From a virus (taxonomy: Duplodnaviria; Caudoviricetes), in the IMG/VR virus record IMGVR_UViG_3300020727_000729, positions 1 through 24,673 of that record: a stretch of 24,673 bases of DNA. The stretch is one strand, 5' to 3'. Under the pieces are notes generated by a model, which saw only the letters and a program-made list of their open reading frames with translations, made no database searches and was not told where the DNA came from. Below are positions 960 to 16,246 of this stretch, piece by piece; the first letter of the stretch is position 1, and every line of letters begins with the position of its first letter. The position numbers were made by a program, and so were the translations under genes.

Positions 960-1034
960 GCGCTCGAGGCTGAGTGGTTTCACAAGAGTCTCTAAAGCTC
1001 ATGATTGCGGGTTCGAATCCTGCCGAGCGCGCCA
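960..1034 (+). tRNA. tRNA with CUA anticodon (amber suppressor-type), atypical D arm
   Basis: Acceptor GCGCTCG/CGAGCGC, discriminator G, encoded CCA; T arm GCGGG-TTCGAAT-CCTGC; anticodon arm GAGT-CTCTAAA-GCTC (CTA at 992-994); D stem pairs poorly (GCTG vs CACA) and position 8 is A. Confidence 0.75.
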
Positions 1035-1356: not shown

Positions 1357-1433
1357 GTGCCCGTAGCTCAGCTGGTTAGAGCAGGGGCCTCTAAAACTCC
1401 GGGTCGCGGGTTCAAGTCCCGCCGGGCACACCA
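1357..1433 (+). tRNA. tRNA with CUA anticodon (amber suppressor-type)
   Basis: Canonical cloverleaf: acceptor GTGCCCG/CGGGCAC, discriminator A, CCA; D arm GCTC-AGCTGGTTA-GAGC; anticodon arm GGGGC-CTCTAAA-ACTCC (C.A mismatch at the loop-closing pair); T arm GCGGG-TTCAAGT-CCCGC. Confidence 0.9.
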
Positions 1434-4298: not shown

Positions 4299-4769
4299 AT
4301 GAGCGTATTAGAAACCTTGACAAAAACCAGCCTCGAACTGCGTAAGAATCGTGACGAACTTGCAAAGTCACTGAGTGTGGTTGTAAGCTCAGCCAATCAG
4401 ATCGCCAAAGATCGCGCAGAGGACAAGGGTAACTTTACTGTTACCGACGACGATGCCATTCAGGCGATTCGCCGTGCTGTAAAGCAGACCGAAGATACAA
4501 TTTCAATTCTGTCTGCAAACAATGGCGAAGACGGTGAGCTGTATGTGCGCTCTTGTCGTGAACTTACTGTTCTAAAGAACATGCTGCCACAGAGTCCCGA
4601 TGCTAGGACAATTAGCCGTTTCGTGCAGGATTACCTTGTGTATTCTAACACTGAACGCAACATCAAGGCAATGGGTCCGATCATGAAGTCGCTGGGCGAA
4701 CAGTACGGTTCTGCGCTGGATCGCAGCATGGCCTCGCAGATTGTTCGTATTGAACTGGTGGAAGGTTGA
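4299..4769 (+). CDS. GatB/YqeY-domain protein (putative tRNA binding)
   Basis: All-helical 156 aa; TDDDAIQAIRRAVKQ, ELTVLKNMLPQ and KAMGPIMKSL...DRSMASQIVR match the YqeY pattern. Confidence 0.7.
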   Translation: MSVLETLTKTSLELRKNRDELAKSLSVVVSSANQIAKDRAEDKGNFTVTDDDAIQAIRRAVKQTEDTISILSANNGEDGELYVRSCRELTVLKNMLPQSPDARTISRFVQDYLVYSNTERNIKAMGPIMKSLGEQYGSALDRSMASQIVRIELVEG

Positions 4770-4771
4770 TC

Positions 4772-5011
4772 GTGGCATACTGGGACCGTACTAAGAACAA
4801 CCGGCTTAAGAAGCCAAATGGCGTAAAGCTCAATTACATGATGTTTGCTGATGATGACAGTAATCCGAACAAGATTACTATGTATGGTCAGCCGTTCCCT
4901 AAAATGGGAGACTACGTGTTTGTAGGCAATACGCCCAGTGGCGGAACTGTTGGCAAGGTGCTGAGTTACAAGTATGGATATGATTGTCAAGCAGTGCTTG
5001 CAGATTCTTGA
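4772..5011 (+). CDS. Hypothetical protein, possibly 3'-truncated
   Basis: Phage-like codon usage from GTG at 4772 up to about 4982; the last codons run out of frame over the NAMPT remnant. Confidence 0.5.
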   Translation: MAYWDRTKNNRLKKPNGVKLNYMMFADDDSNPNKITMYGQPFPKMGDYVFVGNTPSGGTVGKVLSYKYGYDCQAVLADS

Positions 5012-5456
5012 CAAGTACTTTGGTCACACCGTCAATGACAAGGGCTTCAAGGTCCTGAACAATGTTCGTGTGTTGCAGGGTGATGGTATCAATCACGCAA
5101 GCATTCGCAGCATTCTCTACACTATCACGCTTACTGGCTACAGTGCTGACAACGTGGTGTTTGGTCAGGGCGGTGCATTGCTCCAGATTGTGAACAGGGA
5201 TGATCAGAAGTTTGCTATGAAGTGCAGTGCTGCACTTGTTAATGGTGAATGGATTGATGTCTTCAAGGACCCGATCACTGACAAAGGCAAGCAGAGCAAG
5301 AAGGGTCGTGTCACGCTATATAACGATGGCAATGGCAATTTCTTTAGCGATGTTATCAACAAAGACTATGCCGATGAACTGGTCACGGTGTTTGAAAACG
5401 GCAAGCTCGTTAAGGAATACACCTTTGACGAAGTTCGTGCAAACGCTAAGATTTAA
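4974..5456 (+). pseudogene. nadV: C-terminal fragment of nicotinamide phosphoribosyltransferase (NAMPT/NadV)
   Basis: FGHTVNDKGFKVL-NNVRVLQGDGI, FGQGGALLQ.VNRD..KFAMKCSA, VFKDPITDKGKQSKKGR and LVTVFENGKL..EYTFDEVR are NAMPT C-terminal motifs; roughly the first two-thirds, including RPDSG, is absent. Confidence 0.8.
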
Positions 5457-8274: not shown

Positions 8275-8747
8275 TGAAGGGGTCGATTCGAAAACCCGAA
8301 GATGATTTGAGAAAGTCTTTATCTCAAATCAAAGAACAACGCACAAATGAGAAAGTATGTATCCTAGAAGGATGTGACAATCCGATCACAACATTTAAAG
8401 GTCCGGGCGATAAACATCTTTGTAGAGAACACCAAATACAACAAAGAGAATACGGGGGAATGGGCAGAGTCGATAGACCGCATTCCTTTGCTAGAGAATG
8501 GTGCTGTAATTGGTGTGGTTATACTCCGAAAGATGATCCTTGGTTTGATGAGCAAGTTTGGGATGACGAACTACATAAAATCAGAGCAATGAGATCTACT
8601 TTAATCGGTGATCATACTGAACGAAAAGTTGAAGGCGGTAGTGATAGCAAAGATAACGTTCAAACTCTTTGCAGGGTGTGCGATGCTAAAAAGACCGTGT
8701 TAAATAAAGATTATCAAAAAATGTCAGTGACAATTAGTACTGAATAA
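8274..8747 (+). CDS. HNH endonuclease with zinc-binding motifs
   Basis: CILEGC...LCREH N-terminal finger; CNWCG...DH.ERKVEGGSD..DNVQTLCRVCDAKKT HNH core; TAATG overlap with the upstream gene. Confidence 0.8.
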   Translation: MKGSIRKPEDDLRKSLSQIKEQRTNEKVCILEGCDNPITTFKGPGDKHLCREHQIQQREYGGMGRVDRPHSFAREWCCNWCGYTPKDDPWFDEQVWDDELHKIRAMRSTLIGDHTERKVEGGSDSKDNVQTLCRVCDAKKTVLNKDYQKMSVTISTE

Positions 8748-8879
8748 ATATTACTACAGTCCGGCAACACTGAATTTCAGTGCAACAGGTATAGCTAGGA
8801 TTTACTAGTGAACCCATTAGACGTATTAGGGTACGGGCATCACGGTGTGAAAAGCACCAACTTTTGAAAGGAAATGAAA

Positions 8880-9257
8880 ATGGCATAGATTACTGAACAA
8901 ACTGAAGATAAGAATTATTGTTACTGTTTTATTCGAACAGATCTCCCTATTGAACAGCAAATTGTTCAAGCTGCGCATTCTGCACTAGAAGCAGGGCGCG
9001 ATTTAGGCAAGCCTGAATCCACAAGTCACCTTATTCTAATAGGTGTCAAATCAGAACACTCACTGAACAAAGTTTCAGCAGAGTTATCCCAACTAAACAT
9101 CCGCTATCATAAATTTTATGAACCAGACGATGATCGGGGATACACTAGCTTGACCACTGAGCCGCTAGCGCACAGGCATCCATACTTTTTCAAGCATAGC
9201 CTGTACACTTACAAGCCACAAAAATCATACAGCATTCTAGACGAACAGTTCATTTAA
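8880..9257 (+). CDS. PTH2-family (peptidyl-tRNA hydrolase 2/PTRHD1-like) protein with in-frame TAG at codon 3; not in ORF track
   Basis: AAAGGA RBS 7 nt before ATG 8880; ATG GCA TAG then 122 open codons: ITEQTEDKNYCYCFIRTDLPIEQQIVQAAHSALEAG...HLILIGVKSEHSL..VSAELSQLNIRYHKFYEPDDDRGYTSLTTEP..., matching the RxDL...QxxHA, hydrophobic strand and T-x-x-x-x-x-P pattern of the PTH2 fold. Confidence 0.75.
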
Positions 9258-9268
9258 GGAGATACATC

Positions 9269-9532
9269 ATGAACGAATTTAATTTTACCAATCGCGAAAC
9301 TTACCTTGCCTTCCGTGCAGAATGGAAGAAGGAATACAACAACCTCTCAAATAACATTAGAGAACTTAAAGCAAAACACACTGCAGAAGTTAAAAGCAAT
9401 CTAGGCGGACACACTGTTTATAAGCTGATTACAGCACGGAAACAAGCTACTGCTATGCTACTGCTACTTGCAGATGCTAAAGTGCTGTCTGCGCAGCAAT
9501 GGTCTGCTGCTCGCCAAGGAGAAGCAGCATGA
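9269..9532 (+). CDS. Hypothetical helical phage protein
   Basis: AAGGAG RBS overlapping the stop of the PTH2-like gene; 87 aa, coiled-coil-like. Confidence 0.8.
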   Translation: MNEFNFTNRETYLAFRAEWKKEYNNLSNNIRELKAKHTAEVKSNLGGHTVYKLITARKQATAMLLLLADAKVLSAQQWSAARQGEAA

Positions 9533-10107
9533 TCGAATTAGCATGTAAAGATGTAGTGTTTCATTTCAACAAAGGACATTTAACTGATCCGACTATTCCT
9601 ATGTGGGTTGTTAAAACACAGGGGAAAACCTACTATGTGGAACACGTTGAATGTACAGTTCCGTGGTCCACTAAAGAAACTCCGGACAATCCTAGCACTA
9701 AAGGCAGTATCAAAGTTAAAGATTGTTTGCTTGTCATTGATAAAGATAACTGTGCTAATATCACCAAACTTACTGAACATGATAAAATCCGACTCAATAA
9801 CGAAGCTAAGGGTATTACTCGCATAATTTATGGGGCTAACACAAAAACTGATGTCGAATCGTCTATTAAACAAACCAATGTTAAACATGGACCATTTAAG
9901 AAAATCGGTGGTAGATGCGGTAGTACATTTTATGTAACTGACATTATGAATAAACCGTCGCTCACAATGCTATCGTTGACTGCGGGAGATAAATTTCGTA
10001 TACTAATGCCTAACGAGCAGTATTATCAAGATTACGACGATCCTAATCATGATCCTGATTGGTATTGGAAGGATGAAGAAAATGACGGTAACGAAGACGA
10101 AGATTAA
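9529..10107 (+). CDS. Hypothetical phage protein
   Basis: Likely start MIELACK at 9529 (ATGA overlap, AAGGAG RBS); acidic C-terminal tail. Confidence 0.75.
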   Translation: MIELACKDVVFHFNKGHLTDPTIPMWVVKTQGKTYYVEHVECTVPWSTKETPDNPSTKGSIKVKDCLLVIDKDNCANITKLTEHDKIRLNNEAKGITRIIYGANTKTDVESSIKQTNVKHGPFKKIGGRCGSTFYVTDIMNKPSLTMLSLTAGDKFRILMPNEQYYQDYDDPNHDPDWYWKDEENDGNEDED

Positions 10108-14791: not shown

Positions 14792-15094
14792 ATGGCTGAC
14801 ACTATCACTGAAATTAAAGAAACTCTCGATAACGTAACTCTTGAACCAGGTAAGTACAAAGTTGTATTTTACAACGACGATTCTACACCTATGCAGTTTG
14901 TTGTTGCGGTACTGATGCAAATTTTCAAACATTCCGAAGAGGTTGCTACAGACCTTACAATGAAAGTTCATAATGATGGTAGTGCAGTAGCCGGAGTTTA
15001 TAACTTCGAAATTGCAGAACAAAAATGTGGCGAAACTACTAGCCTTGCTCGTCACAATGGCTTTCCGTTAATTTCTAAAGTCGAAGCAGAATGA
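14792..15094 (+). CDS. clpS: ATP-dependent Clp protease adaptor ClpS
   Basis: YKVVFYNDDSTPMQFVV..L..IF, VHNDGSAVAGVY..EIAEQK, GFPL. Confidence 0.93.
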   Translation: MADTITEIKETLDNVTLEPGKYKVVFYNDDSTPMQFVVAVLMQIFKHSEEVATDLTMKVHNDGSAVAGVYNFEIAEQKCGETTSLARHNGFPLISKVEAE

Positions 15095-15609
15095 GCCTTC
15101 GCGACTTAACCAAAGATAAGCATACTGAAGCGGAATCGACAGCTTTTATGAAGGCTGTCTTTGATAATAAAATGCCTCTACACTTATGGGCAGACTTCAC
15201 TTACAACAAAATGATTTTTTATGGAGCCATTGAGGCTAAAGCCCGAGCAGAAGGGTTCATGGATGACCTCAATGGCATCGACCGTGCTTATTGGTTATAT
15301 GAAGATTTCAAGGCAATGAGATGTCAAGGATCTATTAAAACATCAGTTGCAGAATACCGTCAATACATTTTAGATCTCGAACTAGGAAAGGTTCTTGCTC
15401 ATTTGTACACTTGGCACATGGGCGACTTGCACGGCGGCCAAATGATCAAGAAAATGATCGATGCTCCTCACCGTAGTTTAGAGTTTGAAGATCGTGTAGA
15501 GCTTATCAATAAGATGCGAGCAAAGTTAGACGCCAGCCTTGGTGAGGAAGCAAATAACGCCTTTGACTGGGCTATCAGAATTATGAAAGAGTATGATGGC
15601 GATATTTGA
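15091..15609 (+). CDS. hemO: Heme oxygenase (biliverdin-producing)
   Basis: LRDLTKDKHTEAE (proximal His), LAHLYTWHMGDLHGGQMI (distal helix), EEANNAF; ATGA-coupled to clpS. Confidence 0.88.
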   Translation: MSLRDLTKDKHTEAESTAFMKAVFDNKMPLHLWADFTYNKMIFYGAIEAKARAEGFMDDLNGIDRAYWLYEDFKAMRCQGSIKTSVAEYRQYILDLELGKVLAHLYTWHMGDLHGGQMIKKMIDAPHRSLEFEDRVELINKMRAKLDASLGEEANNAFDWAIRIMKEYDGDI

Positions 15610-16246
15610 GCAATGCGATTCAGTTAAAAATGCGATATTCAATCGGTTTGATATAACAGGTAAATTAGATCAAGCAGAAATCAGAGATAATGTACGTGAC
15701 TGGGTCTTTACTTCTAACATTTATCGCAGAGCACACATCAGTGTAGTTGATGCTAGAGAAACTCACAAGTTATGGTTGTTGCATGTAACTGTGTTTCCGC
15801 ATCTTGAAAATGGCAGTCCAATTTATGGATTTGATATTGTTGCCGGACCAAACAAAGTTAGTGGTGCGTTTCATGACTTCAGTCCTGTCTATAGAAATGG
15901 ACCGCTGTGCAAATGGTTTCACGAACGAACCGCTGATCTAGAGTGGAACAAACGACGGGAATTGCCGGAATGGGCAAAGCCTATCTTTAGTGAAGACATT
16001 GTTGCTATTGGCGCTGTAGGAATTGAAGAACTAGAAAAGTTCTGTACATTAGGTTTAGAAACACTAGACTATTATCTAGCAGATTTACGTCCTGAAACTA
16101 CTGCTGTAGATTTTGAGTATGAACAAAATTTCTATTGCACACAGCAACGAAAAAATCCACATACGCCGAGAGTTTTACAAACATTGGGATTTACCGAAGA
16201 AGAAGCCCGAAACTTTGTAGAAAATAATTTATTTCCACTAACATAA
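15593..16246 (+). CDS. pcyX: Ferredoxin-dependent bilin reductase, PcyA/PcyX-like
   Basis: YRRAHISVVDARE..KLWLLHVTVFP, PIYGFDIVAG..KVSGAFHDFSP, RELPEWA..IFS, Q..YC.QQRKNPHT; directly after heme oxygenase. PcyX versus PcyA is inferred. Confidence 0.8.
   Translation: MMAIFEQCDSVKNAIFNRFDITGKLDQAEIRDNVRDWVFTSNIYRRAHISVVDARETHKLWLLHVTVFPHLENGSPIYGFDIVAGPNKVSGAFHDFSPVYRNGPLCKWFHERTADLEWNKRRELPEWAKPIFSEDIVAIGAVGIEELEKFCTLGLETLDYYLADLRPETTAVDFEYEQNFYCTQQRKNPHTPRVLQTLGFTEEEARNFVENNLFPLT

Follow-up and report, generated by a model that had tools for sequence, protein, structure and literature searches.

A stop codon paired with phage suppressor tRNAs interrupts a PTH2-fold gene in standard-code phages

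The stretch of DNA analysed here, referred to as the window, is a 24.7-kb phage fragment (24,673 nucleotides) from freshwater metagenomes; no RNA sample was listed as carrying it, a result with no bearing on expression. Its listed open reading frames leave a gap at 8748–9268, in which a sequence-only reading had placed a hidden gene interrupted by an amber stop; the ribosome binding site (RBS), the ATG-GCA-TAG start, the open codons behind it and the two CUA-anticodon tRNAs elsewhere in the window are all present (Table 1). The amber codon is followed by 122 sense codons up to the TAA at 9255–9257, which is itself part of the RBS (TAAGGAG) of the next gene (ATG 9269). Since the first in-frame ATG, GTG or TTG behind the stop is TTG 9150, at codon 91, a full-length product needs readthrough, as had been claimed. 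An alternative ATG at 8874 lies only 1 nt from the Shine–Dalgarno (SD) site and is absent in L027 and L028 (L numbers designate loci of the family). The 87-aa gene downstream has weak PHROG matches only, and similar genes lie 3′ of the family gene in L001, L011 and L012. Upstream, the structured leader element has variable hairpins and no match in an Rfam search, and part of it was also found in another context in run X2. The motif AATAAATA at 8743–8750 resembles the T4-type late promoter consensus, and similar motifs occur upstream in L001, L011, L027, L032 and L038; a promoter and terminator scan of window positions 8600–9400 gave nothing above shuffled sequences. Elsewhere in the window, adjacent genes for heme oxygenase and ferredoxin-dependent bilin reductase (15091–16246) follow Hsp20 and ClpS genes, and at 4766–5456 a NAPRTase-like ORF (4974–5456) matches only the C-terminal half of the family model.

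Table 1. Features of the window that bear on the gated gene and its suppressor tRNAs
Feature	Position	Strand	Remarks
CUA-anticodon tRNA, second	960..1034	+	Rfam match at 960–1031 with 40.9 bits; unusual D arm; G73; CCA encoded; not called by ARAGORN
CUA-anticodon tRNA	1357..1433	+	Called by ARAGORN; Rfam 61 bits; G1-C72, A73, encoded CCA
Structured leader element	8757..8843	+	Kept in L001, L028, L030
Shine–Dalgarno-like site AAAGGA	8867..8872	+	Core AGGA 8869–8872; 7 nt 5′ of ATG 8880; kept in L026–L032
Start, codon 2 and amber gate (ATG GCA TAG)	8880..8888	+	TAG at 8886–8888
PTH2-fold gene	8880..9257	+	125 codons with TAG decoded; ends with TAA
87-aa gene	9269..9532	+	Conserved; RBS overlaps TAA of gated gene; no stop gate
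Second conserved neighbour in the window's clade	9499..10107	+	No family match

When one contig shows a lone in-frame stop, the usual cause is a sequencing error or a decayed gene, and translation might also begin at ATT 8889, just behind the stop. These explanations are exceedingly unlikely here. Independent assemblies agree, the TAG being present in contigs (not raw reads) from four of four other runs, with no other letter and no sense codon at that place, and being bridged by at least 31 nt on either side in the contigs of three of the four. The arrangement ATG-NNN-TAG-ATT is retained by L027–L032, whose proteins are 70–97% identical to that of the window, and a stop gate persists in the family at 30–40% identity. 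For the 78 domain codons after the TAG, dN/dS of relatives against the window was 0.07–0.18 in six of six gapless comparisons, two of which are the same sequence; purifying selection acts on the frame 3′ of the TAG. As for the ATT, it lies 16 nt from the SD site, and of the 92 early-stop clusters only 24 have it directly behind the stop. Because the stop is kept across assemblies and relatives and dN/dS is low, the PTH2-fold protein of the window is very likely made and selected.

The readthrough product was modelled with AlphaFold (AF2) on a 149-row alignment at a pLDDT of 91.5. The best Foldseek and VIA matches of the model are PTH2 proteins, and it superposes on PTH2 structures with Z of 13–14 and an rmsd of about 2 Å over about 100 residues, which bears out the fold that had been proposed for the hidden gene. 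At the sequence level the relationship is more distant: the window protein scores 15.8 bits against Pfam PF01981 (cut-off 23) and the homolog in phage XacN1 25.3 bits, and in an NCBIfam search the window protein had no match and 4 of 53 family members a weak match to Pth2. The family comprises 1227 representatives at E ≤ 1e-10; its look-alike clusters in the Atlas are 75–94% viral, with PTH2 annotated in 21–55% of members. The catalytic triad of PTH2 is Lys/Asp/Thr. Across 151 rows the conserved positions, numbered from ATT 8889, are R16, D18, Q27, H30, E34, F76, E78, P79, D80 and T/S86, with the conservation values of R, D, Q and H forced by their use as alignment anchors. By sequence alignment only, the lysine of the canonical GK motif is replaced by Gln (Q in 77–79% of the 151 rows at residues 23–24), and the DAG of PTH2 aligns to EPD, so that the Asp-aligned site is Glu (99%), a further Asp stands two residues on (91%) and the Thr/Ser is kept. 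The text on PTH2 available from PMC3488237 and PMC11202043 makes no mention of a Lys/Asp/Thr triad. The gated product is thus modelled as a PTH2-fold protein with putative hydrolase activity; given the changes of the GK lysine to Gln and of Asp to Glu, it may bind rather than cut. The sequence-only reading had likened it to the PTRHD1-like branch and had cautioned about its hydrolase activity; a literature search on PTRHD1 gave clinical and proteomic entries only. In L018, L067, L347, L353 and L366 the domain is fused behind an N-terminal domain of ~130 aa, and L070 and L272 have comparable unfused genes upstream.

The early stop is a feature of the family and is not due to chance, since among 156 clusters, obtained at 90% identity from 281 loci (three further loci with no anchor or no match were dropped), a stop at most 7 codons after the start and just 5′ of the domain is TAG in 89, TGA in 3 and TAA in none; it is codon 3 in 60 of these 92. 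After 11 hand corrections, an in-frame stop anywhere in the PTH2-fold gene was found in 107 of the 156 clusters (103 TAG, 4 TGA), none in 47 and an ambiguous case in 2. In 9 more clusters the stop lies in an adjacent or fused HD-domain gene, which brings gated modules to 116 of 156, and 28 of 156 have no gate of any type. The stop ranges from codon 2 to codon 17 or lies inside the domain, where some clusters have additional or sole TAGs, and codon 2 is variable. Cultured examples include RsoM2USA, GAP32, BF, ME3, Arash, fHe-Yen9-03 and pT24, in which the gene is unannotated or truncated. A scan of bacterial genomes gave three clear homologs, all in MAGs and possibly phage contigs, two of them TAG-gated with a CUA tRNA. 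In the protein databases (P0004, P0021, P0078), gene callers have taken the gate TAG for Gln or placed the start behind it, and the feature is therefore hidden in protein collections.

Two observations could be taken to mean that these phages recode amber throughout the genome or insert an unusual residue, pyrrolysine for example: the tRNAs are called Pyl by ARAGORN, and 27 of 45 database homologs with a full N-terminus have Gln at the gate position. The Gln was rejected as evidence of a sense codon, since in all three Gln proteins for which a locus was identified the codon is TAG, the Gln coming from code-15 gene calls. Recoding of either kind is very improbable, given that the genes are open in code 11, that TAG serves as a terminal stop, and that the gate sits in variable segments, moves and swaps to TGA rather than holding a fixed Pyl position. 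As the terminal codon, TAG is used by 1 of 18 long genes in the window, by 3 of 232 in GAP32 and by 11 of 117 in ME3, and in record G006 TGA ends 42 of 134 long genes although a UCA tRNA is present. Among the marks of code 15, a suppressor tRNA is present; many in-frame TAGs, or a TAG unused as stop, are not. The gate-carrying phages otherwise use the standard code, and since they still end genes with the same stop, suppression should need restraint. A crude scan for early stops, run on the window and six fetched phage records, found the gene in 5 of these 7 (GAP32 and ME3 were missed, probably through the SD filter) and gave no other convincing target in them, the other candidates looking like chance frames.

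The gate had been tied to phage suppressor tRNAs, and this link is upheld by co-variation of stop and anticodon. With the partner gene counted, 110 clusters are TAG-gated, and a CUA tRNA occurs in the fetched locus of 87 of them, as the proposed co-occurrence of a conserved early TAG with such tRNAs would have it; six clusters are TGA-gated, five with a UCA tRNA in the locus and the sixth (L117) with one elsewhere in its record. No crossed pair of stop and anticodon is left after hand removal of three doubtful UUA and one doubtful UCA tRNA calls. TGA gates appear in at least five separate places among the TAG rows of a quick tree, which is poorly resolved (63 of 149 inner branches open). The suppressor lies less than 1 kb from the gene in 68 of the 110 TAG-gated clusters, and in tRNA-rich loci it is the nearest tRNA in 28 of 51 cases, compared with 5.2 expected. 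Both CUA tRNA types of the window recur in its relative L030. Eleven TAG-gated clusters with long flanks had no tRNA called; eight of them have a CUA-type match elsewhere or nearby. As for the remainder, L351 is a 17-kb fragment, L345 has an ATG directly after the TAG and no CUA match, and L320 is a real exception, TAG-gated although its record, 89% complete, gave no CUA match; a nearly identical search pattern had recovered 68 of 74 known CUA tRNAs. RaK2 and Hallingskeid have neither gate nor CUA match. The dependence of gate on suppressor runs one way, because 11 of the 28 ungated clusters have a suppressor tRNA nearby, and for L014 and L023, likewise ungated, CUA matches lie in other parts of their records. 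Taken together, it is highly probable that the phage's own tRNA decodes the stop of the gate. Other tRNA genes were seen as well: in L272 a UUA (ochre) tRNA (8761–8836) lies 1.3 kb upstream of an ungated family gene, with no TAA gate found; in L294 (G026:30802–30894), a 572-kb phage in which both module genes are TAG-gated, a CUA tRNA has a long insertion in the variable region; and in L191 (G001:54520–58460) several degenerate tRNA-like sequences called UCA or UUA lie in the large tRNA array of a close relative.

The tRNAs linked to the family gene share mainly A73 (69 of 97) and G1-C72 (76 of 97); their acceptor stems vary, and four anticodon types occur on similar bodies. In eight clusters (L019, L074, L076, L265, L266, L328, L335, L339) tRNA-like RNAs with CCA ends, in which a GCAA or GAAA tetraloop replaces the anticodon, sit 0.4–2.5 kb downstream of the gene. 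Such observations would suit a sentinel for mischarging, that is, a tRNA that is normally uncharged and becomes charged when a host defence or toxin disturbs aminoacylation, the gated products being trans-editing or anti-defence enzymes. The available part of PMC12636597 speaks on both sides: in E. coli extract, 73 of the 213 phage suppressor tRNAs stayed close to background, yet 90 of 162 UAG suppressors were active with host synthetases, many phage suppressors being charged by the host GlnRS or TrpRS and some being silent. Moreover, a PADLOC search gave no match and no inducing defence system was identified, which leaves a sentinel of this kind quite improbable.

A second gated gene, absent from the sequence-only reading as were the leaders and quadruplet-type variants described below, is a partner of approximately 185 aa (phrog_14850) that lies within 1.6 kb in 34 of the 156 clusters and carries an in-frame stop in 20. 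It is fused to the PTH2-fold domain in both orders, first in XacN1 and last in pT24, and was not found beside the gene in the window's clade, the window genome being a fragment. Its HDxGK motif is conserved, it matches Pfam HD weakly (E 0.016) as well as the HD region of PDB 3wfo (E 0.022), an entry labelled poly A polymerase that is presumably a CC-adding enzyme, and its single-sequence structure model (pLDDT 44) is too poor for a fold search. HD domains of the CC-/CCA-adding-enzyme type heal tRNA 3′ ends. Both gated genes thus have predicted tRNA-end folds, that of the partner through weak matches. In XacN1 the HD–PTH2 fusion is ORF364 and is preceded in frame by RBS-ATG-AAG-TAG; the accessible text of the XacN1 paper (PMC5852040) reports no target for the CUA tRNAs of this phage. 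Judged from these comparisons, the phage tRNA gates one or two putative tRNA-handling genes, among them the missing target of the XacN1 suppressors.

The gate also takes other forms. Seven genes without a stop of their own are preceded, 77–91 nt upstream, by an SD-led leader that has TAG at codon 3–4 and ends in Pro-stop. Four members of the window's clade (L011, L034, L039 and L040) have a second ATG-NNN-TAG, with a promoter-like box on its 5′ side and a terminator-like, T-run hairpin on its 3′ side, which suggests attenuator-like leaders. In L156/L157 the frame opened by a strong SD and an ATG runs into TGA at codon 6, while the domain is encoded in the +1 frame (shift word TGAA), and directly upstream of the L156 gene (from 9949) the tRNA at 9862–9935 folds with an 8-nt anticodon loop holding UUCA. 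Likewise, the L243 gene (from 9961) needs a +1 shift at TAGG, and 0.6 kb upstream a tRNA called Arg(CCU) (9404–9481) has an extended anticodon arm holding CCUA; L243 is one contig, a complete record with no CUA match. Few contigs underlie these +1-shift loci, a search for close relatives gave none, and the two tRNAs are candidate natural quadruplet decoders. Since amber leaders precede seven stop-free genes and also terminator-like hairpins, what is kept is apparently the regulation and not the inserted residue. Of the translational switch first proposed, the suppressor-tRNA link stands, while two parts of it find no support: the RF1-specific signal, as UAG (RF1) and UGA (RF2) replace each other at the gate in step with the tRNA, and a Met-Ala minigene of the bar type as the off state, as codon 2 and the stop position vary and leader and +1 versions exist.

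The double gates of L011, L039 and L040 would make expression steeply dependent on readthrough, as expected of a timer or AND gate without feedback, in which the genes come on once the phage tRNAs are transcribed, matured and charged and the products recycle tRNA 3′ ends generally (peptidyl-tRNA hydrolysis, end healing). The stop–anticodon co-variation fits a timer equally, and the available text of bioRxiv 2021.08.26.457843 proposes that recoding times the late genes of recoded phages. A timer leaves unexplained why only tRNA-handling genes are gated and not lytic genes, given that late promoters exist, and it is considered rather unlikely. All gate types, including both +1 gates, show a stop in the zero frame, and the leader peptides end in Pro-stop, a slow-termination context. 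Such traits would suit a sensor of termination stress, the other arm of the switch proposed from the sequence alone, in which the tRNA would be a constant competitor, scarce or trapped release factors would raise readthrough and the product would recycle peptidyl-tRNA, in keeping with its peptidyl-tRNA hydrolase fold. On the other hand, RF1 and RF2 codons replace one another at the gates, the nucleotide 3′ of the stop is a purine in 88 of 92 cases and no signal specific to either release factor was seen, and the protein lacks the canonical catalytic lysine, all of which makes such a sensor unlikely.

The preferred reading, to which a probability of about 0.4 is given and which is ranked above the timer, the termination-stress sensor and the mischarging sentinel, is negative feedback, in which the tRNA-gated protein deacylates or otherwise inactivates the suppressor. 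Host synthetases would charge the phage suppressor tRNA, and the charged suppressor would compete with the release factor at codon 3, so that more charged tRNA would give more PTH2-fold protein where the stop is in the gene. The protein would then remove the amino acid or peptide from the suppressor, or inactivate it in another way, acting on tRNA 3′ ends together with the HD phosphohydrolase-like partner in some phages, and the charged pool would become smaller. The tRNA would thereby serve as an internal reporter, through which the amount of a tRNA-end enzyme is adjusted and suppression at real stops is held down, and the identity of the residue inserted at the gate is probably irrelevant. 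Negative feedback is favoured because the sign would be wrong for a repair enzyme that tRNA damage induces. The early stop of prfB controls a product that lowers its own recoding, an analogy that would also count for feedback. Counted against it are the replaced GK lysine, the ungated clusters, the exception L320 and the presence of the HD partner beside only 34 of 156 clusters; furthermore, negative feedback alone leaves the phage's gain from the tRNA unexplained. A bolder proposal, which we hold to be doubtful, is that a private codon–tRNA channel (amber, opal or four-base) would serve solely to report charging of a sentinel tRNA and to dose PTH2-fold/HD editing against a host tRNA-targeting defence, with L156 and L243 as natural quadruplet pairs.

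Several known systems resemble the gate in part. In prfB (RF2) an early in-frame stop (UGA) likewise ties the production of a translation factor to competition at that codon, and in both cases the early internal stop is conserved across homologs; here, by contrast, a dedicated phage tRNA apparently decodes the stop, one stop codon can stand in for another and the gene encodes a PTH2-fold protein, a putative enzyme. Leader-peptide attenuation and Pro-stop stalling are known regulatory systems, and the gate shares with them a short leader ORF that lies before a terminator-like hairpin or ends in Pro-stop, the difference being that an amber stop, decoded by a phage tRNA, here does the sensing. 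With the PTH2 family (archaeal Pth2, human Bit1; PDB 3erj, 2zv3, 1wn2, 1q7s, 1xty) the gated protein shares a common fold and the RxDL and QxxH motifs, and it differs in its 12–21% identity, besides the motif changes described and the sub-threshold Pfam score. Stop-recoded phages (code 15 or 4), as far as the consulted sections of bioRxiv 2021.08.26.457843 describe them, also express stop-containing genes through a suppressor tRNA, but here the code is standard, and gates were found in one or two tRNA-handling genes only and in no structural or lysis gene. XacN1 is likewise a standard-code jumbo phage with CUA tRNAs, for which the part of PMC5852040 at hand gives no target where ORF364 is proposed here. 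The +1 frameshift suppressor (quadruplet) tRNAs such as SufB2 have a similarly extended anticodon loop with predicted restoration of the frame, whereas L156 and L243 would be natural pairs, each tRNA beside its matching target gene. Lambda bar minigenes, in the excerpt of PMC8012679 available, also consist of a start, one codon and a stop, and unlike them the gate is followed by a conserved, selected ORF. Among the papers open to a full-text literature search, neither the gate nor the module was described, and an earlier report may exist; the available portions of bioRxiv 2021.08.26.457843 and PMC7162821 make no mention of either.

The feature is real and widespread, and it appears to be undescribed. 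It offers a testable answer to the question of why many standard-code jumbo phages carry suppressor tRNAs, with a target now found for those of XacN1, and it brings to light a gene pair that is unannotated or split in the cultured phages RsoM2USA, BF, GAP32, Arash and fHe-Yen9. The regulatory logic suggested is that of a dedicated tRNA as sensor, kept by five architectures: early stop, internal stop, stop in the partner gene, amber leader and +1 shift. For genetic code expansion, the two tRNAs proposed as natural quadruplet decoders and the possibly orthogonal tRNAs are of relevance, and such a module could be a step from which phage recoding begins.
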